A stretch of 56,877 bases of DNA, counting the filler, from Dugesia japonica (Eukaryota): NCBI GenBank assembly GCA_001938525.1. It is 5 parts of 5 records of this genome, joined end to end, with 100 filler letters (N's around TTAATTAATTAA, not from the genome) between each part and the next. Parts side by side here need not be neighbours in the genome. Positions count along the whole stretch, not along the records: positions 8,879 to 18,864 come from MQRL01623119.1; 4 more parts are not named here. One strand, written 5' to 3'. Of this stretch, positions 1-54,369 are shown piece by piece. The notes beneath the pieces were generated by a model. The model saw nothing but the letters and a program-made list of their open reading frames with translations. It was not told where the DNA came from and ran no database searches. A program made the position numbers and the translations under genes. Position 1 is the first letter of the stretch. Every line of letters starts with the position of its first letter.

Positions 1-706
1 TATGGGCGGAAGAAAATCCACATGAGATACGTGAAGATAGTTTTCAATATCAGTTTTCATTGAACGTTTTGGTTAGAATTGTGGATAATTTTTAATCGGA
101 CCGGTGATCCTACCAGGAATACTTACCGCTGAGGTATACCGCAATTTTTTGGACAATATGCTACATGAGTTGCTTGAGGATATACCATGGGCAATGAGAA
201 AAGTAATGTGGTTTATGCATGATGGACCACCAGCGCATTTTAGTAGACTTACTCGTGGGTCACTAAAAGCAACATATCATGATCACTGGATTGGTAAAGG
301 TGGACCTCATGCATGGCCTGCTCGATCTCCGGACTTAAATCCGGTTTATTTTTTACGGGGCTATTTAAAATCTTTAGTTTATAACACGCTAGTGGAAAAT
401 GAAGATTCTATAAGGAACATTCCTGGTGTTTTCAAAAGAATGCGTGATTCAATGACGAGAAGATTAAATTCCTGCATATTAGCTGGCGGAGGTCATTTTC
501 AACAGTTCCTGTAAGTTAAAAAATGTAAATAAATAAGTTTAAGTAAATATTACGCTTATTGAACTTGTTTGTGTTTTTAAAATCTTTAAATGAGTGTATC
601 TTTGAAACGAGACGAGCTAGAAAAAGTGTTACTATATAATTATTCATAAAATAAGGCAAGGAATAATTCTTTAAATATTTGGCTCACGTTTAACTAACAC
701 CCTGTA
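1..706 (+). mobile_element. Tc1/mariner-superfamily (IS630-Tc1-mariner) transposon, 3' part: decayed DDE/D transposase C-terminus (ORF 104-514) and right TIR
   Basis: Motifs WFMHDGPPAH, WIGKGGPHAWPARSPDLNP and GGHFQQFL. The element ends ...ACACCCTG-TA at 701-706, the reverse complement of the TA-CAGGGTGT terminus. Confidence 0.85.
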
Positions 707-1153
707 TATAAAAATTAAAAAATCTCAGACATTGGAAATCCATGAATCGACCTCACATACCTAATAATGTACCTGGTTGTTTATTTTTATTTGCTTGTGT
801 GCATTTGTATTTTATGGTAAGTAAAGTCAAATTGCATGGATATATTACGTAAAACTGATTATACAATGCAGCACGTATTTTGTTCACATTAATCGTATTT
901 TGAACTCATCTATTGTTCGTTCCCCTGGTATAAAGGACAAGATAGACCATATTTTGAAACTTTTTAAATATATTTTGAAAATTTTTAAATATATTTCTGC
1001 AAAAACCTGTATTACTAATTTCCTTTCTTTATTATTAATAAAATTCATGAAAATAATGAAAAAGTGCGATATATTGATAAAATTTCAAAATTTAGTCATT
1101 ATCGAGTAATTATCAAGAACTTAATTATCATTTTTACATATTGATCACTAATA

Positions 1154-3814
1154 TTAACCATTGAATTCATTACTGAGTTCAATTAATAATTTATCGACTC
1201 TCCTTACATTCTCCGGATCAAACGGACGTTTCAAGACGATATCAATTATTCTTTTGCAACATTCATAGATGTTTTTAGTTTTCGAATTCATTGTTTTCAA
1301 ATTGTATTTTTTATCTAATTCTACCTTGTAATTTTTGTAACTTAAAATATTTTTCTCGAGAATATTTTCATATTTTCCGTACAAAATCATCAACACAATC
1401 CAAGCAAACGAGTAGATCATGCTCAATTTTTTTTCGCCTATTGAGATTATTTGATCATTGTGAGGATATTTAAAAAATATATCATTGCATAATTCACCAT
1501 TTTCTAAAGTAAATTTCCATTTATAAAATTCTTGTATGGTTTCAGATAATTTTATTTCAATATCAACTTTAGGCTTGAGAACACAGAATATCATATCTGA
1601 TCCGAAATTGTCCAATGGAATGTCAGCATCATTTAATTTATTAATTATTTCAAGCAATTTAGATAATAAATGAATTTGGTTGGTTTCGGTTATTTTTTGA
1701 AAAACCATTCTTAATGGTTGAAATTCGCCAAGTTTCGTTATAAAATAAAGCTCATTTTTATTCTCACAGTAAAACGTATAATGTTCCAATAAATCATTAC
1801 TAATAAATTGAGATCGTAAAAAGTACTGAATAATTACAAAATTTTTACTAGTAACTTTGTCAAATTGAAACTTTTCTCGTTTGATTATCATTTTATCATC
1901 GATAATTAAATTTTCATTTGATCCATTAAATTTTTTAATCAAATCAAAAATCTTAGATTTCTCTTTTATCAATTCGATAAAGTTATTATTTAATAACAGC
2001 CACATTTTAAAGTCTTCCATGATTTTTTTAATTTCCAGTTCGGTATCTTGTTTTGTTTTTTTATATGATAAAACGATTTCATTGGTTTTCTTTTCAATAG
2101 CATCAATCAAATATTTTCTTTCTATATCTAATTTAATTTTTAAATAATTTTCAACTTCCGGCAAAATATCTTCGATATCATACTTTAAATGTTCTTTTAA
2201 ATATTGTCTATAGTTTTCTATCGACTGTAATTCATTATAATTTTTTTCTAAAAAATGTTGTTTTAATTGATCATCAAAATATTTTTCAATTACTGAATTT
2301 AGATTATAAGTGTCATTTTCTTGTTTTAATGTGCAAAATGTATGAGGAAAATAGCGTTCTAATTCATTATTTTTTATTTCATTACAAAATGAATTAAATG
2401 AAATTCGATCTAAATTTTCTTGAATAATATTGGAAAACAAATTCGTATATCGATTAATTAAAAAATTTATTAATGATTTTGTGATTTTCCGTAATTTAAT
2501 ATTAATCAATATATCTTTGATTTGTTTTTCCTGGTTTTTGATAATCTCATCAATAGTACTTTTTAATTCGAATTTATTTTGATTTTGTGGGTTTAGTTTG
2601 ATTTTTTCATGAGTTTCATTGAATTTTAATAAAAGTTTTGCTTTACCAATATTTCCTATTTTTACGCCACGTAAATTGGTATCTCTCGTACAAATAATCT
2701 GTCCATAAACTGATTTAAAAACAGTATATAAATAAAATTTACAAAATTCGAATAAATCCCTAATTGTTTCTAAATTAATCAAATTGATTTGATTTGTGAT
2801 TTCAGTAAAGAAGTCGACATGTTTCCATAACAGAAACGGTAATTCGTTTTCTTTTTTCGTTCTCCAAGATTGTACTAACTTGCTGGAATATCCAAATAAA
2901 ACTATTATCTGTTCATGACATAATTTCTCCTTGATAGAATTGTAATGTATTTCATAATCTTTTGTGTAAAGGTCTAAATTATGTTTGTCTTTATTCAAAT
3001 CCATATTACTTTCATCATCTGTATCATCACCTGTATCATCATTGTCATCATCTGATTTATTCTCTTCAGAATCGTCTGAACTTTCGAATGTTCTCTCACG
3101 TGTAAATGCGTTATCGTATTTATTAAAAAGAAAAATTTTCTTTAATCTTTTTCTCGACTCAGCTATCAATGTTGTACAAAATGCTTCATCGGTGACCGTA
3201 AATTTCGGCCCAGCATCATAAATATAAACAATTAGCTGCGGATTAAATATTTTAACATTTATAAAAAATGTATCAGTAAGTTCTTTAGTTTCATTTAATC
3301 CAGGAGTATCAATAATATGAAAATTTTCATCATTAAATGTATATGGAGTTCCGATGTGATAAATAGTTCTCAGATCTATTTTCGAATCGGGCATTAAATC
3401 AGTTCTTCCCACGTATATTTCTTTAACGAATTTTCCATCAAATTCAAATTTTCTAATTATATTATTAGCTGTTTCAGAATACAAAGTAGGTTCTTTAGAA
3501 TAAAATATATGAGAAAAAAATGAAGTTGTCGGAGTACTTCGACTTGGTAAATTCACTTTTCCTGAAAGAAATTCCATGATACATCGGGATTTACCTGATT
3601 TCACTTGACCACAAAAAATTATTTTAATATTTCCTTCATTGAGATCGACAATATGACTTTTGCATTGATCTTTAGTATTTTTATCGATTTTATCATTAGA
3701 TTTAATTTTCATATAAAATCGATTAAACAATTCATAGTTTTCTTTGTAAATTTTGCATTGATTTCGAATATTAATTTTTGCTTCGTTTACTGCTGAATTG
3801 AAATTATTAGACAT
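1154..3814 (-). CDS. Dynamin-like GTPase + coiled coil + C-terminal kinase-like (probably pseudokinase) protein, DSTYK-like architecture
   Basis: Uninterrupted ORF of about 2.66 kb; first ATG at 3814 (MSNNF). GTPase motifs G1 GQVKSGKS, G2 LPSRSTPTT, G3 DTPG, G4 NKYD. An acidic insert follows. The C-terminus resembles kinase subdomains VIa/VIb (LLEIINKLNDADIPLDNFGSDMIF), IX (SMIYSFAWIVLMILYG) and XI, but lacks HRD and DFG. Confidence 0.8.
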   Translation of the reverse strand: MSNNFNSAVNEAKINIRNQCKIYKENYELFNRFYMKIKSNDKIDKNTKDQCKSHIVDLNEGNIKIIFCGQVKSGKSRCIMEFLSGKVNLPSRSTPTTSFFSHIFYSKEPTLYSETANNIIRKFEFDGKFVKEIYVGRTDLMPDSKIDLRTIYHIGTPYTFNDENFHIIDTPGLNETKELTDTFFINVKIFNPQLIVYIYDAGPKFTVTDEAFCTTLIAESRKRLKKIFLFNKYDNAFTRERTFESSDDSEENKSDDDNDDTGDDTDDESNMDLNKDKHNLDLYTKDYEIHYNSIKEKLCHEQIIVLFGYSSKLVQSWRTKKENELPFLLWKHVDFFTEITNQINLINLETIRDLFEFCKFYLYTVFKSVYGQIICTRDTNLRGVKIGNIGKAKLLLKFNETHEKIKLNPQNQNKFELKSTIDEIIKNQEKQIKDILINIKLRKITKSLINFLINRYTNLFSNIIQENLDRISFNSFCNEIKNNELERYFPHTFCTLKQENDTYNLNSVIEKYFDDQLKQHFLEKNYNELQSIENYRQYLKEHLKYDIEDILPEVENYLKIKLDIERKYLIDAIEKKTNEIVLSYKKTKQDTELEIKKIMEDFKMWLLLNNNFIELIKEKSKIFDLIKKFNGSNENLIIDDKMIIKREKFQFDKVTSKNFVIIQYFLRSQFISNDLLEHYTFYCENKNELYFITKLGEFQPLRMVFQKITETNQIHLLSKLLEIINKLNDADIPLDNFGSDMIFCVLKPKVDIEIKLSETIQEFYKWKFTLENGELCNDIFFKYPHNDQIISIGEKKLSMIYSFAWIVLMILYGKYENILEKNILSYKNYKVELDKKYNLKTMNSKTKNIYECCKRIIDIVLKRPFDPENVRRVDKLLIELSNEFNG

Positions 3815-5043
3815 GATTTGTATTAGCAATAAAACATAAATTTAATAATCATCCAAGGTTCAATATTGATTTTTAAAGGATGTCGATTTGATTCGTCAAT
3901 TATATATGCCATTAATGTGCTAATAAATGAAATCAATAACTAGTTATTATTAATTTCTATACACATTTTAGTAATTATTTAATTGACATTATTTTAATAA
4001 ATCTAAAGATAAAAATTATTAACTAAATTTTCATTTATAAAAAATTAAAAGTTTTTTATACTGAGTAATTTATAAAATGTAATAATTAATTAATAATTTA
4101 ATAATAATTAATTAATTGAAACCGTTTAATAAAAAATAATAACCGAATTTGCGATTGAAACAATGGCTTTTTTCTTTCAGATATAAAACTTGAAATTTAG
4201 AATTATATTGTAATAATGTTTAAAATTGTCTGGGTTCAATATGAATAAACATTATTAGTATATGACTTTAAATTGTTTCTTTAAATAAAAAATAAACAAC
4301 AGTTAATCAAGTTTAATTGGAATAAATTACAATGATATGCAGGAGCAATAGTGATTCACAACAAACCAATGATTATTATCTGAATCGGTAGGCAATGATT
4401 TGATGAAATCAACATTATAAATTAAATTAATATTTGCAAGTTTTATTATCTCTTTAATTTNNNNNNNNNNNNNNNNNNNNNNNNNNNNNNNNNNNNNNNN
4501 NNNNNNNNNNNNNNNNNNTCTAACATTTCGTAAATTTTTTTTCAAATTCATCCTAGTCTATATCCATTCTTATCCAAAATTTTATCCCATTTTTTTCTAT
4601 TCCAACTAGTTCATATAATATTTCTTCTGGTGTCCGAATTTTTCAATTATTTATTTTGGTTATTTATTCAAATCTCTAAATAATTTATTTTCTTCAATAT
4701 TTCCGATTTTTCAACAATATTTTGGTAAATATTTTGATTCTACCACCAAAGTATGCATTGTGTTCTAATTTTAACAGTCAATTTCAAATAAAACATTTGG
4801 ACTTTTGCAACTCCGTTATTATATTTTATTGAATTCATTTTCTTTTAATTATTAATTTATTTTTGATTTACTCACCGGCTTATGATTTTAATAATATAAT
4901 ATAATTTTATTTACATTTATAACCTATATCAGAAATGTCCAAGCATTTTGAACATAAAGCTAGTTTTGTCGATAGAAAATTTCAAAGAGTTGCAAATATC
5001 AAAATTTACAAAGTTAAAAGAAGTATTATTATAATTTTAAAAA

Positions 5044-5095
<52 letters not shown>
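5044..5095. repeat. Compound (TC)n(TA)n microsatellite
   Basis: Directly visible. Confidence 0.95.
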
Positions 5096-5098
<3 letters not shown>

Positions 5099-6371
5099 AC
5101 ACATTGAACCATCTCCCTCCTCCCTTCTGGTTGAGAAAATTTTTTGAAAATTGGTTCAGTATCCACCAATCACATTGCAGGAAAGTTTGCTTGCACACCA
5201 TGTATGTGTGTATAACTTTCCGTGTATGCATGTATAGTTTCAATCGAGCGATGAGACATTTATTGTCTTTCGCTGTTAGTGTGTCATAGTTGGTTAGTTA
5301 TTTAGCTAATTACAAATTATTTTCATTTTTGGCTGATGATTTTCGCAGATAACATAATATCCACTAATTAGAATGCAGCAGTTTTCGTAAATGACTATGT
5401 ATCCATCAATTTGAATGCAGTAACATGGGGAATTTAAATAATATTTATCCATACTTTAGAAAATAATGATAAAACATATAGAAAATCATTCTAACACCAA
5501 CAGGGTAGATTTAACATTAATATTCTCCTTGCAGACTTAAAATTAATGTTTAATATCCCCGGACGGATTTAATATTAATATATGATATTCTCCAGGAAAT
5601 GTTAATTTAATGATAACAATGTATTAACCAAATCAAATATCCATAAATCAGAATGCAAGTGATTATCTATTAACTAGCCAAAATGCATCTTTATTACAAG
5701 GTATGTGTGTATCAATATTACATCACAATTTCAAACCTGAACCAATTATTTAAGCAGAATAAAGATAGTGTACTAATTATAGGCATAGGAACACGGTGTC
5801 AAGAACTAAATGCAAATCCTGCGTTCAGTAAATGTGACTCACGATGAAATCAAGAAAAAAATACATAATACATATACATATATTACACAAATACGATACA
5901 AATGTCATAACATACGAACATACCAACACAATATTCGTATCGATCAAAGTAATATTTGAAACTGACCAATCAACCAATTAGTCAATATTCGAAAGTCAAA
6001 ATAAAATATATCTACAAATTAATTAATATAACAACATCTGTTAATTTTTTGGAATAATATGTGATTAACAATCTGAAATTTATGAACAAAATGTTTTAAT
6101 CAATTATTTTTATTTAAACAGCTGAATAATGAATGAGACTGAATAGTTCTATGTATGTATGCATTGAAAATTAGTATACATACTGATCTGTTTTGGTTAT
6201 ATTTTGAGACTTGTAATTTTACTAAGAACTCTAATATCTTTGAGCAGCATTTCTTTTTAAAACAAAATGAGCTAATAATATTAAGTACTGTGAAGTATGT
6301 TATTCATCAAAAATATTATTTAAAAAGGTATATAATCTTATTTCATATAAGGCAACTACATATATTACCAT

Positions 6372-6435
6372 CAGGGCCGGCCTTTGACACAGGCAAAGCA
6401 GGCAGCTGCCTGAAGCGCAAAATTAAGGCATCACT
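6372..6435 (+). mobile_element. Isolated hAT-like (Tip100-type) terminus
   Basis: CAGGGCCGGCCTTT...AGGCAAAGCAGGCAGCTGCC...GCGCAAAATT, a GC-rich start typical of hAT/MITE ends. No partner end was found. Confidence 0.4.
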
Positions 6436-6487
6436 TAAAAAAGTTCCATGTATTTAATCTTCTAACCGTTCTTCAAATACATGTAGT

Positions 6488-8778
6488 TAGGGAATCCAAT
6501 ACCTGACGAAAAATCAATACCGGCATTTCGGTAATAAAGAATTATAATTCCAGGATTCAGAATCATAAGAAATTAATTGAATCACTCTTTTTTCAAAGAT
6601 TATTCATATAAAAATAATTCATTAAAATAATAATTAAATTAAACATAAGGAACTTAAAAATCACAATTCATTAAAATATATTTCAATGAAAAATTTTGTT
6701 GGTCTATTTTGTAGAATACTTATTGAATAGTTATTTATCTCCTTTGAAATACCCTCTTAAAAAACAAAAAGCATCCAAAGTTATGTCATCCATTCTGCAT
6801 CGTAACTTATTTAAAATTAGAAATAGCCCTGTCGGATTCAACGCTGGTTGGGTGAACCGTTAAAAGAAGTTTGTAAACCTGTTGGAGATATTTTCCACGC
6901 ACACCTTCATTTTCAAACAGGCTCTTTTCATTTTAGGTATTTGGTGGGATCCCCTCCGTGTTCTGTTAGTTTTCTGACTTTACAACTTTTTTGTTTCAAA
7001 GTGGCTGCGTCTAACGGCTTCTTCAATAAAATTTCAGATTTTTTTGTTGTTTCATCAATCTCAACCTCACTGACCTCTGAATCTATAATTTCATCTGCCT
7101 GCTCTTCAGGAGCTGTGTTTTGATTCCAATGTCCCATTTGATTTTTGGTATTTCTTTTGGTGGCCACTTTTTAACTATCATATCCAAGAGCTTTATGCGG
7201 ATAACCAATTAGATCAGACAATTTCGTTCTTCTTCGAAGTATGCGTTCTTTCAACGCCGTAAGAAGTTCTTCGCTCAGTGATGACTTAATTCCACTTAGC
7301 CTATCAAATATAAATTTGATTGTAGTATCTGTAGAAAGTAAGTTGGCGTTATCGCGACATTGTGACTCAACAGCTAATTTTACCGGCAAAAGGGCTGAGA
7401 TTGTGACTGAAACTGTTTCAAAATCGGCATCAGTAAAATTTATACCTAGTTTTAAATCTATATCTGATTTTTGAATGCTTGATTTTAATTTGTGAAAACA
7501 TTTAAGCATTGCTAATAGACTATTCCAACTAGTCTTGGAATCTAAGATTAAGCAATATTCGTTGCCAAATTTGAGATTTACATAATTTTGAAGTCTCCTT
7601 TTTTGTTGGTGAACGTTTAAATATTTTCACAATTTTGATGTCTTTTTGTATAAGCGGACCAAGCTGATTATGAGTTATGTCCGTACCTCGTCCCTGTATT
7701 TCGTGATCCATTACTAATTCATCCTCATATGCATATACATCTCCTCCGACTGCATCATAATAATTGGATTCTTTAGTTTCGGAATCTGAATCAATATAAA
7801 TTACCTTCGGACTGATGTTTCTACCTTCACTTGCATCTTTTTTATAAAGAACATCTACGACCGCAAGTTGTATCGTATAAGCCAAATACAATTGCTGAGT
7901 AATGGGTACTAATTTGCCTACTTTTTGCATAACTGCAGCACTGTCATTTGTTAAACAAATGATATTATTCTCCCATGACAAACTATACTGATTCAATTTG
8001 TCATTTAAAACTGAAACACATTTTACTGCAGGTAAACTTCCATTGATACGGAGAAGTTCTAAATTCTAAAATTTTGATTCCGAATGAAGAATCTCATTTA
8101 TGTATTGAAGATTCCTTATAAAGATCCACTTATCGAAAGTAATACTAAACCCCTTTTCTTTTAATTTATAATCCTAGATTTCAGTAATTATTAATTGACG
8201 AATGGTTTTGCTATAATTAATGACGATTTTTTGTATGGTGATGGCTGATTTTGGAAGTTTATCACTTAAATTTAAGACTTTCAGTGATGTTCAAAGATCA
8301 TCGAATGTTATAAAAATTCTGAATGGGAGCCCATCGCGTGCTGTCAGTCTAGCTAGGATCGTTGCTAGTGAGTCGTCCTTGGTATTTCTAAAATATTTTG
8401 TAACTTTTGGAGAAGGCTTATCAGATTTTGAACTAGATCCAACTACAAGTTCAACAGCAACACGTTTTCGTGAAATTACTTCAAGTTTGGTCTTTAAATG
8501 AGTATGGAGGCCGCTTATCGAGCCACCTCCGGTTTTTATAATATTTGCGCACTTCTTGCATTTTGCGTAATCTCCTTTTTCTTTGAGAAATAAAAACCAG
8601 ATCGAATTTTCATCTCTGCCTATTGAATGATGAACAAACTTCCTACTCGGACTCTCTATGAACTAAATTAGATTGTTAAAAAAAATTAAAATTATATATG
8701 ACTTATAAAATTTTAATATTTAAATTTAATTTAAATAAACTTACCAAAGTTGTGCTAATTAAATATTTTCACAAAAAA
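6488..8778 (-). mobile_element. hAT DNA transposon with decayed BED-finger transposase (coding about 8665-6740)
   Basis: Minus-strand fragments: BED finger (SIWFLFLKEKGDYAKCKKC..LHTHLK), FSITFDKW, ICLTNDSAAVM, SWNSLLAML, PTSVES and TLDAFCFLRGYF. Stops and frameshifts are present. A GT..AG intron lies at about 8744-8665. The probable terminus TAGGGAATCC is near 6488. Confidence 0.85.
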
Positions 8779-8878: not shown

Positions 8879-8932
8879 AAATTATTACGTTTCACAATTT
8901 AATATACTACGTTGTGGTATTTTAAAATTATT

Positions 8933-9075
8933 GATACACCTTTACAAAGGGGATAGAAAAAAATTATGATACACCTTTACAAAGGAGATAGAAAAACTAA
9001 AATATATGCATACAAAGGTGAAAAAAAAATTATTTTGACATTATAAAAGTAGATACTTCTTATAAATTTTCACAA
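8933..9075 (+). promoter_or_regulatory. Probable Pol II promoter of the spliced gene/PolB unit: two direct repeats plus TATA box
   Basis: GATACACCTTTACAAAGGRGATAGAAAAA occurs twice (about 8933 and 8968), with a partial third copy TACAAAGGTG. TATAAAAG is at 9042-9049, about 45 bp before the ATG at 9089. Confidence 0.5.
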
Positions 9076-9088
9076 TTTTATTAAAACT

Positions 9089-9990
9089 ATGAACAATCAA
9101 AGCATATTGAGAACATTGTTGAGTGAAGAAACGGTAAACTAATGATTTTTATTATTATTAATTAATTGTTTTCAGGTTATGAACAATATAAATCATAAAC
9201 GAAATGTGAATTCGACAAGTTTAATGATAGATAATGTAAATTTACTTTTATTATTTAAGGATTATTAATTTTATTTTAGAAATATAATAATTCAAATCAA
9301 AGTAGAAGAGGTATCAAAAGAAAGAGTTTAATTAAGGTAAATTTATTATCAACAGTTGATAGTTGTTAAAGTTATTTATTTTAGAATTATGATTCTTCTG
9401 TTAATGCTGCTCCTATTTATGATAAAAGTTAGTTTGTATTTATTTTATAATTTAATTTATGATAATTTTTAAATGAAATTTTAATAATTTTTTAAAATGT
9501 AATCAACTTATTTTTTCCAGAATTTTGTACAATGTATAAACATTATTGTACAAATCGGACTCATAAAGGCGACTGCCATACTATTATGGAGAGATACTAT
9601 GCACAATCCTTTTATGGGGAAAAGTATTACATATTTCCAACATGTAAATCTATAGAAATAGCTAAATATTTAGACTTTTATAGGTTGCATGCAGACCACT
9701 TAGGGACTTTTACAATAAATAAGAAACAATTATTAAGGATGATATTAGATAAAGAGATCGCTGTTCCACCAATGAAAAAACGAAAAGAAGATTTAATAGT
9801 TATCTCAAATGAGGAAATAAAGGTGAAATCTCAGATAATTGAAGATGATTGGAGCAATTTTCAAATCATAGATGAAATGGATGAAGAAGATATTGCTATG
9901 CAAAGTTTTATAGATGAAGAAGAAGCAAAATTTGGTGGCTCTCTCAATGAAAATGTGATAATAGAAAGTGACTTATATAAATGTCACTAG
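9089..9990 (+). CDS. Five-exon ORF (9089-9133, 9176-9235, 9280-9336, 9385-9427, 9521-9990), probable N-terminal part of the Polinton PolB polyprotein or an upstream element gene
   Basis: Four GT..AG introns of 42, 44, 48 and 93 bp. Phases 0, 0, 0 and 1 join with no stop (MNNQSILRTLLSEET/VMNNINHK...) into track ORF 9532-9990. That ORF is in frame with 10000-10374 across a single TAG. Confidence 0.65.
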
Positions 9991-9999
9991 ATATTAAAA

Positions 10000-12900
10000 A
10001 TGGATGTTTCAACGTGGAATACGAGAGAAATCGTTGTACCAAACTCCTTGATTGAGCAGTTTTTCAAAATTATTGAAGAATTGAAAAATGTCAAGATCCA
10101 ATTTGAGATAAATGTTGAATTCGAAAAAGAAGAAGAAACAAAAACTTGTAGATTGTCGAATCGAGCTGTTGTATTAAGCGATTCTTTTTTAGAAGATGGA
10201 ATAAAACAGTTAAATGAAAAGATAGCTATACGAAGTGAACTTGGGTCTAGTTGGATACTGAGCCGCATACTGGAAATAAATTTTAAGATTATCAAGGTAT
10301 CCAATATTAGCCGATTATCTGGCCATAGTTATATACCTACCCCAGTCAACCTTTATAAGAAAAGGCAATTTTAAATATTCAGAACACTGAGAATAAGTGT
10401 TTTATATATAGNATCTTGGCTATTCTTAAACAAGATAAAGTTAGAGATAATAAATGTAGGATGTCCAATTATCAAAAATACATGTCTGAACTTGTATTTG
10501 ATGAAGGGGACATGCCAATGAAGCTTACAAATATACCAAAATTTGAAAAGCAAAACCCGGGTTTATCAATTAATATTTTATCATGGAATTCTCAATCAAT
10601 TGAGGACGATGATGATGTTATCATGAAGCATCCGAATTTAGACATTATACGTTGGTTTAAATGCGATGGAGAAAAGATTAATTTATTGTTATTGGAAGGT
10701 TCCAACAAATTTCATTACACTGCCGTAATGAATTTGAATACATTGATGAACAGGGATATTAAAAAGGGTGTGTTCGAATTCAATCAATCTGGTGCGAAAA
10801 TTGTCTCTACGAATTCAAGGATAATACTGCTTACAATACTCATGAGCCAATTTGCGAGAAAATTCAGACGGGCATCACATTATACAAGATGCCAACAGAA
10901 AAGAATCTGGAGTTTCAGGATTACTCCAAAACTATAACTCCATCCTTTGTTATATATGCTTATTTCGAATCAGTATTACCAAGCGATGAAAAGCATTTCC
11001 AGAAACATTTACCTGTTTCAGTTGGACTGTTTTTGGTAAATAATTTTACCAATGAAGTCAAATACACCCAGTTTATTGGAAATGAATGNNNNNNNNNNNN
11101 NNNNNNNNNNNNNNNNNNNNNNNNNNNNNNNNNNNNNNAAGGCTGTGGAGGAAATTGGTAATAATATAGTATATCCATATTATATTAAAGAAGGAAAAAA
11201 GAAACGAATTATAAATCCGGATCAAGAAATGGAATTTAAACATAGTACAATATGTTATTTGTGTAAAAAACCTTTAACTAATCCAGTTCGGGATCATGAC
11301 CATTTTACAGGTAAGTATATAGGAGCCACCTGTAATAAATGCAATTTGAGCAGAAGAATCAACTATCAATTACTAATAGTCTTCCATAATTTGAGAGAAT
11401 ATGACCTTTACCATATATTAAAGTACGGATTAAATAAATTTCTGCATTGGACCATGTCTTGCATACCAACAACATCACAAAAATTTCTATGTCTCATTGG
11501 ACATCTGAAAGAAATTACAATCAGATTTATTGACTCGTACCAATTTATTAGCTCTTCATTGAACGCAGCAGTCAAATCCTTAAAAGAGACACCTTTGACA
11601 ACAAATGAATTTAGAGATAGCAGAATAACAATGTTAAAGGGGATATTTCCTTATAATTATGCAACCAGTTTGCAAGTTCTGGTTGAAACAACAGCAATGC
11701 CACCAAGATGGGAGGAAGTTAGTGAGCAAAATTATCAAAAAACAGTGGAAATGTGGACTATAACAGGATGTGACAATCTATTGGATTATATGCTAGTATA
11801 TTTGAAACTAGATGTGTTTTAGTTAGCCGATTTCTTTCAACAGTTCAGGGCAAAATGATTGGCACATAATAATTTGGAGCCATTAACATTCTTTGGCATC
11901 CCGGGTATGAGTTGGGCATTTGCATTGATGTCATTAAATGAGCCAATTGAATTGTTGACAGATAATGATATGTATACCTTTTTTGAAGGGGGTATAAGAG
12001 GCGGGCTAACATTTGTAAATAAACACCATGTTGTTAGTAACGAAAACACGGATTTATTATACATCGACATCAACAATTTATATGGATGGGCATTAAGTCA
12101 GAAATTGCCCTATGCCAATTTCGAGTGGGTATATACTGGATTGGATTCAGTATTGGAAGAATGCAGAAGAGGAGATCTCGAAACGTTACCATATGGATAC
12201 ACATTAAAAGTAGATATAGTTATACCAGCAGAAATTCAAGACAAACTGAATGATTTGCCTGTTGCAGTAGAACATCAAAGTGCTCCGGGTAGTGAGGTGA
12301 TAAAATTGATGCTGACTCATTACCCGAAAGAAAGTTATATCATACACTGGAGATTGCTGCAAATTTATTTGCAATTAGGTGTAAAAATAACAAAGGTACA
12401 TAGAGGGGTTAAGGTCAACCAGGCATCTATTTTCACCCAATATATAGATGTTAACACTAAATTAAGATCAGAGTGTAAATCAGAGTTGGAGAAGAATTAT
12501 TATAAGCTTTTAAATAATAACCTGTATGGTAAAACAGTTGAAAATTTAAAGAAGAGAATGGATTTAAAATTGTGTAATTCAGCTCAAAAATTGATGACAT
12601 ATACATCAAAAGCTGGATTCAGAAAAACCACTAAAATTGATTATGATCTAATAGCTGTTTGGTTGAACAGAGATATTGTTTGTTTGGATCGACCGAGTTA
12701 CATAGGACAGACTGTACTTGACTTAAGCAAATTAAGAATGTACCGATTACAGTACATTGGGTTGGAAAAGTACAGACAGAAAGAGAATTGTAAGATAAAT
12801 ATAGTAGCCGGTGATACCGATAGTTTTTTCTTAGAAGTGGTAGACAAAATTTTGGAAAAACTGACCGGATTAATGAAGAAAGATCAGCTATTAGATACGT

Positions 12901-13268
12901 CCAAATACAACACAAACCATCTCCTTTACAGCAACAGTTTAAATTCAGTAATTGGCAAGTTCAAGGATGAGAGTAAAGGGAAAAAATATCAAAAATGGAT
13001 ATTTTTGAGACCGAAATGTTTTAGCGTACTTAGCGAGAAAGAATCAATGAAAGCTAAGGGCATAACATTGAAAAACACTGAAATTTTTCATCAGCCATAC
13101 CTTAACTGTTATAATAATAATGAAATGGTCTCAGTAGAGCAATTTCGAATAACATCGAAAAATCATCATCTCTACAGTATTAAGAATAAAAAGATAGCTC
13201 TGTCTAATAAGGATGATAAGCGAGTATGGACAGAGAAAAAGTTAAGATTACCATACGGGCATTATTGA
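10000..13268 (+). pseudogene. Maverick/Polinton-type protein-primed family B DNA polymerase with endonuclease VII-like insertion (frameshifted, with stops)
   Basis: N-terminal GSSWILSRI..SGHSYIPTP, NKCF and FHYTAV. Exonuclease motifs VIYAYFES, FHNLREYD and FIDSYQF. EndoVII-like CYLC..VRDHDH..CNKCN. Polymerase motifs YIDINNLYG (A), KLLNNNLYGK (B), AGDTDS (C), KAKG and DDKR..PYGHY. Confidence 0.93.
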
Positions 13269-13500
13269 TTGTAATGCTTTTCCTCAATCAAGATCTATCC
13301 AGCTCAATCATGCTCAATCTAGTCTATCTCAAAGTATGAAATTATTTGATTTTAGATAATATTAAAAAATTTTATATTCANNNNNNNNNNNNNNNNNNNN
13401 NNNNNNNNAACGTGTAACAGTCGTCTTTAGGACCACAAATATTGATTGAGAGTATATAAGTCGTCATTAGGGCTCAAAATTATAATTTCGAGAAAGAGAT

Positions 13501-13830
13501 TTAAACAAAGAACATGCAATACAGATGCAATTCAAGGGGGGAAACCATGAGTCATACTTGTGCAACTTGAATGCAAGTTAAACAAAGACATTGCAACTCA
13601 AATGTAAGTATACAATCAGCATGAGTGATACAGCTGAGCAATAATAATGCAAGTTAAACAAAGAAAATGCAATACAGGTAGAAGTCATCAACAACTGAGT
13701 CATACATGTGCAACTGGAATGCTAGTTAAACAATGACAATGCAACTCAAATGTAAGTATACAATGTGCATGAGTAATGTATTTCGGCAATAAGAATGCAA
13801 GTTAAACAAAGAAAATGAAGTTGCAACAGT
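13501..13830 (+). repeat. Higher-order tandem array, ~75-bp monomers alternating A/B (~150-bp dimer)
   Basis: TTAAACAAWGA recurs at 13501, 13578, 13654, 13726 and 13802. Units 1 and 3 resemble each other, as do units 2 and 4. Confidence 0.85.
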
Positions 13831-14972
13831 GGCCAATATANNNNNNNNNNNNNNNNNNNNNNNNNNNNNNNNNNNNNNNNNNNNNNNNNNNNNNNNNNNN
13901 NNNNNNNNNNNNNNNNNNNNNNNNNNNNNNNNNNNNNNNNNNNNNNNNNNNNNNNNNNNNNNNNNNNNNNNNNNNNNNNNNNNNNNNNNNNNNNNNNNNN
14001 NNNNNNNNNNNNNNNNNNNNNNNNNNNNNNNNNNNNNNNNNNNNNNNNNNNNNNNNNNNNNNNNNNNNNNNNNNNNNNNNNNNNCGAAGATGTACCAATG
14101 ATAGAAGAAGAAATACTGATAATTAAAGGTGCGGACCTTTAGAAAAATAAACAGATATTTTTGACTATTTTGATTGTTAACTATATGTTATCAAATAAAT
14201 ATTTGTTTGAAAATTGTTTGAAAATTATTTACAATTTATATGATTGTTATATAAGTAGAATTATAAAGAAATAATTATTATAATATAATAAAAAGATNNN
14301 NNNNNNNNNNNNNNNNNNNNNNNNNNNNNNNNNNNNNNNNNNNNNNNNNNNNNNNNNNNNNNNNNNNNNNNNNNNNNNNNNNNNNNNNNNNNNNNNNNNN
14401 NNNNAATATAAATAGAAAAGATATTATTCGTAAAATAAAGTATTAAATATTTAAAATGTAAAAGATATTATTATTTTGTAATTATTAATTTTATTATTAT
14501 TAGTTAAATATTATTATTTGTAAAGAAAAAAATCTGAATTATGAGAAGAAAGTTTTATATCGTTTAAAGGAATACAAATTAAATTAGAATTAAATATTGT
14601 TAGTAAATTATTTATATTTATTTATTGAAATATCGGTAATTAAATCTGTAAAACAGAGTTTCCAAAATTATTATTTTAAGTGATAAATATTATTAAAATT
14701 ATTATTATTCAATAAATATAATTAAATTTGATGAAAGAAATATATTTTGGTAATAAAAATTATATGAAAAGAAAGAGAAATCAATTTTATGTAAAAATTA
14801 ATTAAGGATATTTGATTATTTATATTTGTTCATTTAGTTATTTGTATTTATAAATCATAAACAAGTTTTCTAAAATTATTATTATGATCGATAAATATTA
14901 TTTTTACAAGCCGTGCAAGTTCCAACCAGTAAATTATCAGAAGTTTTGTTGACATTTACAATTAGATTTTTT

Positions 14973-15249
14973 TGAGCACCGTGTATTGCAGTTACATAAA
15001 AATCAATGATGCTGATGACATTTACAATCAAATGTGTCGGGTGAGCACCGAACAGTATATTCAACTCAAAATTATACGTGTCCGGTGAGCACCGCACTTT
15101 GTTAATAAAATAATAAAAATCTACAAAATCTATGAAGCCGAGTGAGCACTGGTAATCATACAGAAACATTGATAAAGTACGGATAATATGATGAAAAAAT
15201 AATCATGACTAAATATAGTCATTTATATAGAATCTGCGAGTGAGCACCG
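14973..15249 (+). repeat. Cluster of five (G)TGAGCACYG motifs
   Basis: Copies at 14973, 15041, 15085, 15142 and 15240 with irregular spacing. Confidence 0.75.
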
Positions 15250-15588
15250 CACGATTCTGCAAATATTTGAAGTGGACACCCACAAACTTGTCAGTCTCTG
15301 ATGGTAGAAAAATTACTGTAAAAGAAAATGCAAAAATCAGACAAAAAACGTAACACAAAAACTAAAAAATCTTATATTTCATCTTAATTTTGATAAGCTC
15401 ATTAGAGACATTTATCTCTTTAAAAATTTTTGAAAGGAATCGTGAAAAAGTAATTTTCTATTATTATTTGATAAAATATATGAACGGAATACTGGGATGG
15501 TGTTCATCGTTGACGAGCGCCGCTTGCAACGATGGACATCAGGGCTCAGAGATCCGTATAATGAGAGATCATTCACCAACATAGAAAC

Positions 15589-15745
15589 CTGATGATAAGA
15601 GATATANNNNNNNNNNNNNNNNNNNNNNNNNNNNNATATATGAATATGAGAGTTAAATCTAAGGATAAGAGATATATGATTATGAGAGTTAAATCTGATG
15701 ATAAGAAATATATGAATATGATAGTTAAATATGATGATAAGAGAT
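15589..15745 (+). repeat. 36-bp minisatellite
   Basis: Unit GATGATAAGAGATATATGAATATGAGAGTTAAATCT, about 4 copies, partly N-masked. Confidence 0.85.
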
Positions 15746-16593
15746 GGAGATGCGGAATATATGAAATGGCAAATGTTTATGAGAGATGAAAGTCACCATG
15801 AGAAATGTGATTATGAGAACTGATAACGATTAAATGTTAATGAATTATGAGATATGAGTGCAAAATAAATAATGTATATGCGAGAGGAAAATTAAATGTT
15901 TATGTAAGAGCTGTGATTAGTTATTGAATGAAAAAGATGATGGTGGTTAGAGAGATAAGTAGCAATCATGAAAAATTGTTGATAGTATGATAGTCAACGA
16001 ATGTATATGCATATGAAAGAGATGTGTAAGAGATAGTGCGAGATGATGAATGGACAATAGTGGTGTTGGTTGAATCCTTTCGAGATAATTTTGTTGTTCT
16101 AATGATTTATTTGTGTATACAGTTATGACAAGATTGTAAATGTGGTAAAAATATTAATTTATTTTATATTTAGGAATGCCTTTTATTTCATTATGTATCT
16201 TTAAATTTTAGATTAACATACAAATAAATTCTTAGATATCTTTTACCTTTAGAACTCTAAAAGATAATGCCAGTCGCAGGAGCACCATCCATCAGTTTGA
16301 GGGATATGGATCGTCAAATGAATTAAAATATTGTTCGAACGATTGGATAGAAAGTTTGATCCCATCGAAATGATCATTGTAATGACTCGATATTAAGTAT
16401 AAGGAAGATTGAAGAACAATGAGGCGATCAAAGATGAAAGCAAATGAAAGATGATCCACTTTTAACCATATTGACGGGTGATCGATGCTGTGCTGTAAAA
16501 AGATACTTTTGTAAATATTATTTGATGATAGTTTATATTAAAATATTGTTATATTCTTAACTAATATGTAGTATTAGTTGTATTTCCATCTAG

Positions 16594-17124
16594 ATGACTA
16601 AACAATTTATCAAACTAGAAGCTATGCAATCCTTAGAACCAGCTGGTTGTACATTTGAGACAAATTTATGCAATAACATGCCACCAGTTTGGGATTCAGT
16701 AAGCACCAAAGGAACAGAGAGCAATCCGTGGTGGATCACTCAAGATCAACTACAGATAAAGAACCAAGAGATAAGAGCAATGCGCGAGGAGGTAATCAGA
16801 CAGCGCCAGCAGTTCTCCGACCAAATCCAATGCATAAATAAACTGCAAATCTAAGTAGACGAACAGGAACAGCGGTATCAGTTTCAGCTTACGTAGCTCT
16901 TAGAATGGCAACAAGAGCAAGAGAAGGAGTTAGTCTCGCTATTAATTCGATCAACAGAACTCGCGAAGCAACAACAACATGTGATCCAAGTAATGAGAAC
17001 CGCCCAATTAGAGGCCGAAGAGTATTCCAAACTGTCAGAAAGGTTGAATAGCAAAGTAGAAGTAGTGCTACAACACGTGCTTATGATATTGGACGAAACA
17101 AATATTGTAGAAACTACAGTGTGA
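16594..17124 (+). pseudogene. Orphan Q/E-rich coiled-coil ORF with in-frame stops
   Basis: The frame of ORF 16594-16854 continues past two stops (..QI*VDEQEQRYQ..ETNIVETTV*). An AG acceptor lies immediately before 16594, and GC is higher than in the flanks. Confidence 0.45.
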
Positions 17125-17396
17125 TAAATCTGTGTGTTAAAATCAATACAGTTTTCTACTTCTAAGTTATTTTAATTATTTAATGTGTCAAATTCTAACG
17201 TAATATTCATGACCTTTTTTATAATCAATTGCAACTGATAATATTACCGTAATAATTAAAATAAAAGGCTCGATGCTAACATAAACTAAAATGAAAAATT
17301 GAGGTGTCAGTATTAAACATAAAGATCTTTTATTATACCTCATAATGAAATTAATTACATCTTACGTTAATAAAATGTTTACTATAATTAATAACA

Positions 17397-17714
17397 GTGT
17401 ATGATGTAAAACAACTAACTGATACCTCAATGGCGGATCTTCGAGCAAAATGGTGTGCTATGCAAAAGAAATTAAAGAATAAAATTATAAAGCTCCAACA
17501 TAAGAATACTCAGCTTTGGAACAAAGTAAATACCCTTAAAGAACGAGATCTCGCGTTGTCACAAAGATGTCGAGCCATGGCGGATATCAACAAGGCTTAC
17601 ACGGACATGGAAGAAGTGTTGATCGCAACTGTAAAGACATTAACTCAGACAGTAAAATCAACGTCAAAAGTAGTCGGAGGAAAGCTGAAGGAAGTTATTG
17701 AATTGGATGAGTAA
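17397..17714 (+). CDS. Orphan coiled-coil ORF, probably a terminal exon
   Basis: 105 codons with a heptad-like pattern. It is preceded by an AACAG acceptor and followed by AATAAA. Confidence 0.4.
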   Translation: MYDVKQLTDTSMADLRAKWCAMQKKLKNKIIKLQHKNTQLWNKVNTLKERDLALSQRCRAMADINKAYTDMEEVLIATVKTLTQTVKSTSKVVGGKLKEVIELDE

Positions 17715-17836
17715 TAAACATTGGATGAGTGATAACCATTGATTCGAATAAAATTTTGTAAAGAATGTATTTTGAATTTTCGATGATTAAGAAATGATAC
17801 TTAAGAGAAGAAAGAACGGTGGTCGAAAGATGAATA

Positions 17837-18543
17837 TTAAAGATCAGTAGAAACAATATTAAACAACCTCAAAAAGCCTAGTAACCCAACAACTGTATGA
17901 TTTACTGGTTTCTTATAATTTCGATTTGTAACTCTCGAGTAACTTCTAACTGCACCAACTCGATCTCTGTTTTTCTCTACTCGATCTAATAACTTCATTG
18001 TTTCTTCAATTTCTTCTATATTCTCTAGTTTCCGCAAAGTCAATTCTTCTTCTACTTTTTTGTTATCTGAACAATATACTAGCATCTTTGCAACCATTTT
18101 TTCTTCGGTAAAATCTTTACTTGTAAATAATCTTTTTACTAAATCTTTTAAAATTGTAAAATAAACTTGAATCTCTTCATTTCTACGCATGTAGTTAATC
18201 AAATTTTGAAAATCTTTGATAACATCTTTCTTTTTCCCAAATGCAATACGTAAGAAGCCTGAAAACCTTCAACTTCTTTCAAAGTCTTTGCATATTCTTC
18301 CAACAAATCTTCATCTAACAAACACAAAACTAATCTCTCCTGTGGTTTCCCATATGTGATGTTTTTAGCTTCAAAATATAATTCACAACGCTTGATGAAT
18401 TTCTCAATATCATCTCCTCTGCAGAATAAATTCGGCAATAAACTCTCTGTAATAGAATCGGTATTTACCGCTGCCACCATGTTAGGTATAACTTCAATTG
18501 GTATTTCATTTTGCAATTCACTCCTAATATTTTGAGACATCAT
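17837..18543 (-). mobile_element. Ty3/Gypsy gag-like pseudogene (frameshifted, 3'-truncated)
   Basis: LLPNLFCRGDDIEKFIKRCELYFEAK...LVLCLLDEDL and MRRNEEIQVYFTILKDL (major-homology-region-like). Confidence 0.6.
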
Positions 18544-18864
18544 TTATTTTACGACTACAAATCAAGTTTAATATAAATAATATTGAATACAGGCATTTCA
18601 ATATTAATATTTATATAACTCTATTTCTATCAAGTAAAATTATTAATTAATAATTATTTCCTCATAAAGGTAGTATTACTACTTCAAATTAATATTTGTC
18701 TACTGTAAAATGGTTTCATGTATAATTGAGTATTCAATATTTCACCAAGTTATTTTTGATTAAACTGTCCAGAAAAGGAAACTGGAAGTCAATTGACTTC
18801 TTTAAATTGAATTTCATGTTATCATTAATACGATTGGCTTTTCTAAATTTTTTTCTCTAAAGGA

Positions 18865-30779: not shown

Positions 30780-32660
30780 GATTTCAAGATCACTTTCTTT
30801 ATAGCAAAAGTTTTCTACATTTAAATGAAGCAAATTTATCAATAATGTCTTAAAAATTAATATGTAAAATTTTATTTTCTATAAACATCATTGATAAATT
30901 TTGCAAATGTTATTGACCAAGACTATACCTTAGATAATTATTTGTGTTTAAGGACGCAGAATGATCGCTCTCCTGTTACATTGCATATTGGTAATGTTAA
31001 AATTTTTTTTTAAATAGTTTCATCATTAGAAAAGGTTGATTGCAATCCATCAATTATTATTTTATACATTTTGAAAAGGCACTCAATATTTCCTCTTTAA
31101 TGAATTTAAAAAAATGGTGAACTTTGTCATTGAAATAACATGTATCAATGTAATATTTATACAGTTCAGCTAATTTCGAAATAAATTTGTTTATTTCGTC
31201 ATAGGTCATGTCAAGATTTGAGAATAGCTTAAAATGATTTAATACCATCTTGTAGATAACCGATCTAGTAGAAATTTCTGTTACAATTTTTCCCAAATTA
31301 AGTTATGGGTTTCTACCACAAAAAATTCTCGCCCCACCAGGCTCATACAATTTATATGTGATTCATCGAACTGCATTTTTGTCTTTATACGTCTTTCTTT
31401 ACAACTTATATTATCAGTTAATAAAACTGCCTCATGTTCTATACTTTCAAAATCATTTACGCATTGAAATAAATTTATTTAAAATTGTTGTAATGAATGA
31501 CTCGTGATGTTTATTCTCTGCAATAATTTATCCCATATAACGGTTTGCTATGCATTTTCATACGTGTCTAAACAATTAAATAATTTTTTTGCTTCTAATT
31601 TAGTGATCGGTTATTCATTGACATTTTCGATAATACTATTAAAAGTTGTTTTAATATTTTTATAATTAATTAGTAAAACAAAAACTGCATCAGCTCTTGC
31701 TGACCATCTAGTCTCGTTAAGTCTTTTTATAAGTTTTGAATTATTATTGCTATAACTATCAACAAGCAGATTTCATCTATACATAGACGAAGATAAAAAT
31801 AAATAAATGATTTAAATTAAATCGAAATAATAAGCAGCTGAAGAACAAGCCTCAGCAGCAAAATTTCTAATTAAATTTAGGGAGTGACTTTTTAAATTTA
31901 AAAAGTGGCAGATTTTTTAAAATTCTTTATTCTAGCTTGCAAACCATTATACTTGCCAGCCATATTAGCTGCATTGTCGTAACTTTGCCCACGGCAATCT
32001 TTTAGATCTTAAGACAAGTTATTTAACTTTTTGGTAGTAATTTCTTAGAAATATTTGGATTCGTGACTTTTAATTTCCAATAAGCCAAAAAATTGTTTCT
32101 TTACATATCCCTCTTTGTTAACGTATCTTAATATAAATGTTAATTGATGTATATGGCTTATATCTGGTGTAGAATCAACAATTATCGAATAGTATAAAGC
32201 TTCCTGAACCTTTGAAATTAGTTTCCCTTTTAAATTAATAAATTCATCACATTTCGTGTGAGATAAATAGTTAACTCTGCCACTTCCGATATTGTCATAT
32301 CTCTCTAAGTTGTCTTGAAGAAAATCGTCAAACTGTGCCAAATATTCTGTACATGTTATAAAATTTCCATTTCTATGTGAGTCAACACCTTCTCTGTGTC
32401 CTCGAAATGCTATACCCAAAATAGCTAATAATTTCACTGTTGCTGCAATTCTCTTTAAAACTTCTCGCCAATATTTTTGTTCGGTTTCAATTTGTTAACT
32501 AATGGGGAATAAATGCGTCAAGTTAATGATAATCTTTTTTTAAACGTTAACATTAAAGAAAAATGGTCTTTAGAACATTTATGGTCTTTTAATGTACGAT
32601 TAATATTTTTTCAGTCATTATAACGAGTTATAAATTTATTATTAGAATGAATAAAAAGTT
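30780..32660 (-). mobile_element. hAT transposase pseudogene (ZMYM1/DUF4371-like, Tip100 clade)
   Basis: IAFRGH..GNF, YYSIIVDSTPDISH..QLTFILRYV, CRGQSYDNAANMAG, ETRWSARADA and LPICNVTGERS. Confidence 0.88.
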
Positions 32661-53216: not shown

Positions 53217-54369
53217 GTTACTTACTTAATAACGCCACCGTAGCAGAAGTTGCGCTAATGCGCCAATAAAGAGCAGCCTTGTTCGCGCGCGCACGCAGTT
53301 ATCTGACTTTTTTGCTGATTTTTGACGCCATTTTTTAGTGCTACGAAAATGCGTATTCGGGATTTGCCAAAAACAGAACAAGATGCAATTTTATTTTGTC
53401 AGGAGCAAAATATTTTACCAAAAAAAACGAAAATGTAACAATTCCCATGACATGAAACTTTATTTTGGTAAACGTAAGTTTTGGAAATGTAATTTAAGAC
53501 ATTATGATCAGCAAGTGGGACTTAGAAAAGATAACTAGTTTGACGGAAGCAGAATTCCATTTTATTCAGCTTTGAGATTTATATACTGCTGGGGCCAGGA
53601 GTTGACGTCGATTAAATTTTGTGAAAAGCAACTTGATTTATCGGATAAAACTGTTATACATTGGAACAATTACATGTGTGAATTATGTGTTTTGGATATG
53701 GAGAATAAACCAAACAAGAAGGTAAGTGGACTAGATTACATTGTGGAAATTGATGAAAGTTTGTTTACTAAACGTAAAAATAATTGTGGTCAAGTATTAC
53801 CCGAACACTGGGTGTTTGGTGGTATATGTAGAGAAACAAAATATTCGTTTGTTGTCACTGTTCCTAATAGAACTGGCTCTACCCTTCTTGATAAAATTAT
53901 TGAAAACATTGCAGATGGTTGCACAATTTATTCTGACAGTTGGAAAGGTTACCAAACAAAAAGAATAGAAATAGAAGGATTCCTAGATGCTAAAGTTAAT
54001 CATAAATACAATTTTATTGATCCTGATACAGGAGTTCATACACAAACAGTTGAGAGAATGTGGAACATTGTTAAATGGAGAAACAAGAAACGTAGGGGGA
54101 CAGCAAGACATCATTTGGAATCTTATTTATCAGAGTTCATGTGGTGACAGCATCAGGTGAAAGAAAATAGAGACTGTTTTTAATCAATGTTAAACTCTAT
54201 ATAGGCCCATTTTCCACCGAAATTCGATTGACTACTTTGTTTTTAAATAAAGTGTTTTGATTTTAAATAAATGTTTTTATTTTATTTGTCGCAAAAATTT
54301 TAGGTGTAGATTGGCGGCACCTAAAAACCGCCAAATCTGTAGCTGCGGTGGCGTTAATACGTAAGTACT
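53217..54369 (+). mobile_element. Merlin (IS1016/ISXO2-like) DNA transposon, near full length, transposase pseudogene from ATG 53349
   Basis: VEIDES, WVFGGICR, IYSDSWKGY, VNH..FIDPDTGVHTQTVERMW and YLSEFMW. TIRs: TACTTACTTAATAACGCCACCGTAGC on the left and its reverse-complement match on the right. One frameshift and several stops. Confidence 0.92.

Follow-up and report, generated by a model that had tools for sequence, protein, structure and literature searches.

A Maverick/Polinton-type DNA polymerase gene of Dugesia japonica whose reading frame probably starts in four spliceosomal mini-exons

Intact vertebrate Mavericks have been described with intronless genes (PMC8097293), in a nematode Maverick the core genes are intronless whereas the cargo genes contain introns (10.1101/2022.07.12.499685), and endogenous viruses of protists have been annotated on the assumption that there are no introns (PMC10120064, PMC8547959). 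Annotation of the core Maverick genes routinely relies on gene callers of the prokaryotic type (PMC8097293, PMC10120064). The absence of introns from core genes, a descriptive Maverick trait (PMC8097293), does not extend to the locus analyzed here, and this departure is the finding that we report. The locus belongs to a stretch of 56,877 nucleotides (nt) from Dugesia japonica (assembly GCA_001938525.1), hereinafter the window, in which five parts of five records are joined; the relevant part, positions 8879-18864 (28% GC), starts at base 1 of the contig MQRL01623119.1 (G000:C623119). With a probability of about 0.82, this part carries a broken copy of a Maverick/Polinton-type protein-primed DNA polymerase (pPolB) gene the frame of which begins in four mini-exons that are delimited by GT-AG introns. 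In the literature searched, which included PMC8502044, 10.1101/2023.08.22.554363, PMC12220804, PMC8363768 and PMC6431247, we found no Maverick polymerase gene for which introns are reported; Kapitonov and Jurka 2006, Pritham 2007, Repbase and supplements fell outside the scope of this search and may mention them.

The proposed gene is located on the plus strand. The coding part of exon 1 (45 nt, 9089-9133) starts with an ATG situated 210 nt after the contig start and is followed by intron 1 (42 nt, phase 0, 9134-9175), exon 2 (60 nt, 9176-9235) with in-frame ATGs of its own, intron 2 (44 nt, phase 0, 9236-9279), exon 3 (57 nt, 9280-9336) encoding a basic KRK motif, intron 3 (48 nt, phase 0, 9337-9384), exon 4 (43 nt, i.e. 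3n+1, 9385-9427), intron 4 (93 nt, phase 1, 9428-9520), which ends 5 nt before the first conserved Cys codon, and exon 5 (9521-13268), which encompasses the rest of the pPolB gene, as delineated by reading frame and domain matches, and is broken in this copy. All four introns are GT..AG, 81-89% AT, with a T-rich 3' tract, and judging by these ends they match host-like, U2-type spliceosomal introns. The joined frame of 675 nt, or 224 codons, remains free of stops until a TAG at 9988-9990. The four introns had been called at exactly these coordinates in the original prediction, along with a TATA box upstream; such a TATA-like box, TATAAAAG, for which a promoter function is plausible, is indeed found at 9042-9049, and a conserved motif, TCACAATT, at 9070-9077, is likely to mark the transcription start region, given its spacing from the box.

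Could such a chain be an accident of composition? The region is ~75-89% AT and repetitive, and no junction reads were recovered, so the GT..AG pairs might have arisen by chance in non-coding, AT-rich DNA that underwent tandem duplication 5' of a polymerase open reading frame without introns. We scored the possible chains with a splice model that was trained on 10 introns of one host myosin locus only (45-80 nt, GC 6-22%, GT..AG; their removal opens 89 and 487 codons). The best four-intron chain ending at the last acceptor is exactly the 42/44/48/93-nt chain, with a score of 54.5, whereas 400 dinucleotide shuffles in which the last acceptor was preserved produced a chain of any kind in 33 cases and never this score (maximum 42.9). 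The probability that no stop occurs in 68 codons after base shuffling is 0.0004. The exon-intron chain is not a product of chance, and the notion of an intronless gene behind fortuitous GT..AG pairs, which is further at odds with the distant copies and the metagenome relative considered below, is very improbable.

The leader region is a dispersed repeat, with 65 matches (from 40 scored of 1388 candidates) on different contigs; 57 copies were aligned after removal of the duplicates of one contig and of the window's own contig. The close copies show a mean pairwise identity of 87.5% in exon 5. Conservation of the splice sites in sister copies, which was proposed at the outset as a check, is borne out, with retention ranging from 25/25 to 34/43: GT in 25/25 and AG in 25/27 copies for intron 1, 25/31 and 30/34 for intron 2, 33/38 and 37/42 for intron 3, and 34/43 and 51/53 for intron 4. 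In the close copies, this retention appears to reflect inheritance more than selection. More telling is the pattern of length changes, which are multiples of three in 30/42 copies for exons 1-4 versus 12/65 for introns (Fisher p 6e-8, counting copies that are not independent); when shared length classes are counted, the ratio is 4/5 for exons versus 2/12 for introns (p 0.03). Exon 1 differs by 0 or +3 in 13 of the 14 spanning copies, and the common length variants of exon 4 are -3, +12 and +15. No codon column has a majority stop in the spliced frame of the close copies, compared to 9 and 11 such columns in the other two frames. In the copies L004, L009-L013 and L018, a fifth intron lies just before the first ATG (corresponding to window positions 9079-9089); it is missing in the window and in L002, L003, L005 and L007 through a deletion that also took upstream sequence rather than through precise intron loss.

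At greater distances, using the homologous exon of a metagenome relative as the query, we found 25 loci with 35-63% protein identity, of which 24 were counted as distant copies, L145, a member of the window's own family, having been removed. In 22 of the 24, an AG precedes the first Cys codon by exactly 5 nt, whereas any other position from -40 to -8 has an AG in at most 3 of 24, and the interiors of intron 4 are unrelated (39% ungapped identity). A fixed acceptor next to unrelated intron interiors is hard to attribute to chance; removal of the introns restores a conserved frame, with the position of the intron kept while its interior diverges. Only 5/24 distant copies have an in-frame ATG in the interval from the last upstream stop to the Cys codon, at scattered positions, and therefore the module that this Cys opens needs an upstream exon for its start. 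Of the 17 relatives in the protein alignment A1, 8 are annotated with Met-x-Cys at the split codon, so that intron 4 may have been either gained or lost.

These observations bear directly on the main rival explanation, namely, that the introns are real but reside in a non-coding 5' untranslated region, with the polymerase starting at a Met in exon 5, either at 9532 or at the downstream MxxYY. This possibility is compatible with the lack of amino-acid selection in exons 1-4, with the presence of the Met at 9532 in 48/53 close copies, and with the annotation of 4 of the 17 relatives in alignment A1 as starting at the MxKYY Met. The first Cys, however, lies upstream of both Mets and is kept in 22/24 distant copies, whereas Met 9532 is found in only 2/24. 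Moreover, the insertions and deletions in the leader exons keep the frame, the in-frame ATGs of exon 2 are maintained (ATG 9179 in 26/28 and ATG 9224 in 26/30 copies), and the phase pattern 0,0,..,1 holds in the families parsed. A scanning ribosome would meet the exon 2 ATGs before the Mets of exon 5. We consider a non-coding leader unlikely and favor a coding one.

How old is the spliced leader? It is present in a diverged form in at least three other families. In one of these (family B, L150-L164), six introns are discernible: the first exon is followed by up to three 45-nt phase-0 exons which, together with their introns, are 80-82% identical to each other (Z ~8 versus shuffles), and toward the 3' end of the leader, these are followed by an exon of 45 nt with KRK near its end, an exon of 49 nt with Asn as its first residue and a phase-1 intron of 114 nt. 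The motif of the duplicated module is matched one to three times in 9 of the 15 family B loci and not at all in the other 6, which are mostly truncated or rearranged. An exon of length 3n+1 that starts with Asn and has a GTTAG/GTGAG donor is also seen in L175 (intron of ~977 nt), L146 (427 nt) and L142 (114 nt). A phase-0 intron followed by an Asn-starting exon, as with intron 3 of the window, occurs in family B and L175, and such an exon occurs in L146. The motif TCACA(A/G)TT is found 5' of the first exon not only in the window but also in family B and L175; a TATA-like box lies 28-29 nt 5' of the motif in the window and two family B copies (L156, L164), whereas no clear TATA is discernible in L175. 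Taken intron by intron, the evidence for position thus comes from 22/24 distant copies for intron 4, from family B, L175 and L146 for intron 3, and from the frame only for introns 1-2. Within the window itself, the exon-plus-intron units 1/2 and 2/3 are ~60% alike (0/500 shuffles), for which composition could partly account, and introns 1-3 are mutually 63-69% alike, a likeness to which T-rich composition may contribute. That in family B the exon is duplicated along with the intron fits tandem duplication better than introner-type copying of introns alone.

The breadth of this distribution also speaks to the possibility that exons of a host gene were captured by, or fused to, one inserted copy after integration, by way of exaptation or as cargo. 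The introns do resemble host introns, and Mavericks are known to carry host-derived, intron-bearing cargo genes (10.1101/2022.07.12.499685). Yet, because the leader is present in dozens of dispersed copies and, diverged, in at least three other families, it has been replicated with the element, and a capture by a single inserted copy is very unlikely. An ancient capture, before the families split, may have occurred.

A second case comes from the metagenome contig L102, one of 23 loci, in which the exon with the Cys/His module begins with its own ATG and three introns, of 52, 44 and 52 nt, all phase 1, are located behind the module. The GC content is 8-19% in these introns and 38-43% in the exons. 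Of the chains allowed by four candidate introns, the three-intron chain alone yields an open frame, which extends over 659 codons and reaches the end of the contig. Across two of the junctions, the spliced product can be aligned to P0016, a database protein that is itself continuous (residues 5-127, 37%, E-value (E) 6e-23), without a gap at the first one, so this locus, too, needs its introns removed for read-through, which counts against fortuitous splice sites. The introns of L102 are behind the module and those of the window are before it; therefore the introns sit at different places of the N-terminal extension in each lineage. Two other metagenome contigs, L122 and L123, contain distant pPolB relatives that match the database protein P0001 in pieces, with frame changes that may reflect either introns or decay.

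What protein would this gene encode? The Cys/His module (9523-9765) contains Y, C, F, H and H residues that are invariant in 26 aligned sequences, and its 80 residues at the start of exon 5 yield a predicted structure with a predicted local distance difference test score (pLDDT) of 87. From these residues, the module probably binds zinc. No Pfam family matched the window member, and the comparison with PDB gave no clear match for the module (best VIA Z 2.9; no Foldseek match at E<=0.001; only weak C2H2-type rows), which is no proof of a new fold. The module recurs in many relatives; the related proteins P0019, P0027, P0028, P0043, P0052/P0079, P0061, P0062 and P0069 carry two or three N-terminal copies of it, and in P0043, C2H2-like fingers precede the modules. 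Next in exon 5 comes a linker (9766-9975), first basic (PPMKKRK) and then acidic and rich in D/E, which is modeled with low confidence (pLDDT <50 for most of residues 81-108 and 131-139); the acidic linker is also present in P0001. It is followed by a domain resembling terminal proteins (TP; 9979-10305), whose model (residues 153-261) best matches, in the VIA search, chain F of 4IR1, in the little-finger (LF/PAD) domain of PolIV (Z 7.5, root-mean-square deviation 2.5, 91 residues aligned). Y-family polymerases fill ranks 1-6, with Z <8 indicating a moderate match, and the best viral match is an adintovirus protein (E 2e-4). The terminal proteins of polintons have been likened to the LF/PAD fold (PMC11161782). 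Farther downstream, an Endonuclease VII-like insert (PF02945, E 1.4e-5) and the start of the DNA_pol_B_2 match (PF03175, E 1.5e-8) cover 11139-11819. Between the TP and the exonuclease, visual inspection of the aligned relatives shows Cys and His motifs that may belong to a vOTU domain.

The notion that splicing adds a basic and acidic leader holds in part: the KRK motif does come from the spliced exons, whereas PPMKKRK and the acidic patch belong to exon 5. The first Arg of RRGIKRK is nearly private to the window copy (2/35 others), the KRK triplet is basic in 29/33 copies, and KRK is likewise found where the corresponding exon of family B ends. For related proteins, a word-indexed search of longer proteins gave 1 match among 2552 candidates and a HMMER scan gave 77; the viral contigs gave 9 pattern matches, none of them a relative. 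None of the 25 related proteins examined has an N-terminus like that of exons 1-4; where the extensions are long, they consist mostly of tandem Cys/His modules, and the leader itself thus finds no support among database proteins.

Two relatives, P0001 (48% identity) and the full-length P0079, run without interruption from the Cys/His module through the TP into the polymerase. Is the TAG at 9988-9990, then, the end of a separate upstream gene? Split TP and polymerase genes have been described in a coral polinton and in adenoviruses (PMC11161782), and the spliced 224-codon frame would end there. But 46 of 50 copies have a sense codon at this position and 4 have a stop, the position is within the beginning of the TP-like domain, and not only P0001 and P0079 but also L102 is continuous at this point. 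Because the codon is mostly sense, the TAG is best interpreted as copy-specific decay, and the separate-gene alternative is refuted for practical purposes. Since the TAG, the conservation of which would have meant a separate upstream gene according to the original prediction, is not conserved and the relatives continue from the module into the polymerase, leader, Cys/His module, linker, terminal protein and polymerase form a single gene. The frame of the window copy is further interrupted by frameshifts at ~10360-10374 and ~10760-10800 and by stops at 11820 and 11856.

The assignment of this gene to the Mavericks/Polintons is indicated by the PF03175 matches, which are above the cut-off in the window (E as above) and in the sister copy L174 (E 9.8e-21), along with 33% identity over 713 residues to the full-length P0079 (1286 residues), and the predicted structures place a TP domain N-terminal to the polymerase. 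No integrase was detected in window positions 13269-18864, the stretch itself beginning at the contig start, 5' of the first ATG. Upstream of the polymerase in the sister-family contig L175 (~66% nucleotide identity), there is an rve integrase match with E 0.003, below the cut-off, and L175:1-6600 (G000:C544374) contains decayed frames with motifs resembling those of the Maverick ATPase, integrase, capsid and protease; the broken ATPase-, capsid- and protease-like frames gave no Pfam match. By eye, no introns are apparent in these frames, and the polymerase downstream of them has the spliced leader. The element ends were not found on these short contigs.

Several observations weigh against the proposed splicing. 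Three raw RNA runs, of each of which 6-25% was read (14, 407 and 46 reads aligned), and a contig set whose kind is uncertain (575 records) yielded no joint at any of the four introns, so the junction reads anticipated in the original prediction did not materialize in these low-depth data; the test is weak, with exons of 43-60 nt, 10% divergence and a three-read threshold. The three joints that were seen in these RNA and contig sets (X7, X8, X11, X2) are neither at an intron nor GT..AG, and ~10 reads of X8 fall inside intron 1, i.e. unspliced molecules are present. The reads come from both strands and none is >=99% alike to the window copy, that is, they derive from other copies; the pattern fits background read-through of dead copies or DNA carry-over. 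Furthermore, segment 9523-9987 of exon 5 is open in only 7/44 copies, the sampled copies being largely decayed, and diversity among close copies is only slightly lower at the splice dinucleotides (0.107) than in the intron interiors (0.134); little extra conservation of splice sites is expected because the copies are dead. Amino-acid selection was not seen in exons 1-4, where 7 of 37 shared changes are synonymous (19%) versus ~25% under neutrality. Codon-position diversity shows no third-position excess in exons 1-4 and a weak excess in exon 5. Finally, a search extending <=1.5 kb upstream recovered a matching penultimate exon at only 3 of 10 loci, one of them of the window's family, and the shortest of the 10 host introns exceeds two of the four introns by 1-3 nt. 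Nevertheless, a host-style, multi-intron transcript for a Maverick-type polymerase, the central proposal of the original prediction, is supported by the sequence evidence from the sister copies and across families.

The following scenario appears to accommodate these findings. Transcription would start near 9070 from an RNA polymerase II promoter at ~9042-9077, the host spliceosome would remove the leader introns from the transcript, and translation would begin with an exon 1 or exon 2 ATG, yielding one polyprotein consisting of a 69-residue Asn/Lys-rich leader, the Cys/His module, the basic/acidic linker, TP, vOTU, exonuclease with the Endonuclease VII-like insert, and palm, from which, in analogy to PMC11161782, the vOTU might release the N-terminal portion. 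Splicing would serve mainly to provide the start codon and the first Cys, and the leader might be a low-complexity spacer constrained mostly for frame, with KRK perhaps serving as a nuclear-import signal. When the element was still active, symmetric phase-0 exon-plus-intron units probably underwent tandem duplication, which lengthened the leader. A broader generalization, that an animal-associated Maverick clade makes its polymerase via the host spliceosome and that the N-terminal extension of pPolB, built around the uncatalogued Cys/His module, is an intron nursery with independent gains and unit multiplication, strikes us as an even bet. Any benefit of the introns for expression or for escape from silencing is speculation.

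As to the immediate setting, two direct copies of a ~35-nt unit (~8933-8997) lie just 5' of the TATA-like box, and tandem repeats at ~13540-14220, 3' of the polymerase stop, are common to the sister copies L177 and L168 and could represent subterminal sequence. A 190-nt segment at 18479-18667 is 79% alike to L175:4104-4295, apparently a small repeat inserted in the capsid-like region of L175. In the other parts of the window, an 895-codon open frame on the minus strand (1154-3841, within the part at 1-8778) matches Dynamin_N (E 4.5e-12) and is long for an intron-rich host, and there are transposon fragments with a DUF4371 match (32045-32494, minus strand, E 7.2e-9) and an ISXO2-like transposase domain (53539-54147, plus strand, E 5.3e-12).

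If the spliced leader is real, polymerase N-termini, including the conserved Cys/His module beside the terminal protein, have been missed or cut short in databases. Should the extension indeed be an intron nursery, each lineage would be tied to hosts that splice ~45-nt introns, and annotation based on open reading frames would cut off the true N-terminus. In family B, for which one genome contains many dated copies, the multiplication of introns by tandem duplication could be counted, so that a debated route of intron gain becomes directly testable. Introns inherited within a replication gene would also imply that transcription is nuclear, by RNA polymerase II, and that the element relies on the host spliceosome, a situation shared with adenoviruses, which have been proposed to descend from Polintons.

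How, then, does this gene compare with the described systems? With the pPolB (TP-vOTU-Exo-Palm) of the Polintons/Mavericks (adintoviruses) (PMC11161782, PMC8502044), it shares the PF03175 domain, the LF/PAD-like fold of the TP and the occurrence as a multicopy dispersed repeat; the differences are the start split over mini-exons and the extra Cys/His module and linker ahead of the TP. By eye, Cys and His motifs are situated where those of a vOTU would be expected, and a sister-family contig has the weak rve match upstream of its polymerase. In the E2B transcripts of adenoviruses for pTP and Ad-pol, small 5' exons are likewise spliced by the host onto a message for a protein-primed polymerase or terminal protein, and the pTP coding sequence is split over two exons (PMC11304566). 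There, however, TP and Pol are separate proteins with separate mRNAs and a shared leader, and the junction quoted spans a 3.9-kb intron (PMC11304566), whereas here a single fused gene contains four or more ~45-nt introns of host size, which are multiplied through tandem duplication; the two splice layouts are unlikely to be homologous. The introners of dinoflagellate Maverick-Polinton-like proviruses are also spliceosomal introns inside Polinton-like elements, but they are intron-generating transposons that mostly inserted after integration (PMC11957031), in contrast to the introns described here, which are inherited with the element, fixed relative to a conserved Cys and duplicated together with an exon. 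The nematode Maverick cargo genes wasp and krma show that introns can reside within a Maverick (10.1101/2022.07.12.499685); those, however, are accessory genes of host origin, whereas the introns of the Dugesia element interrupt a core replication gene.

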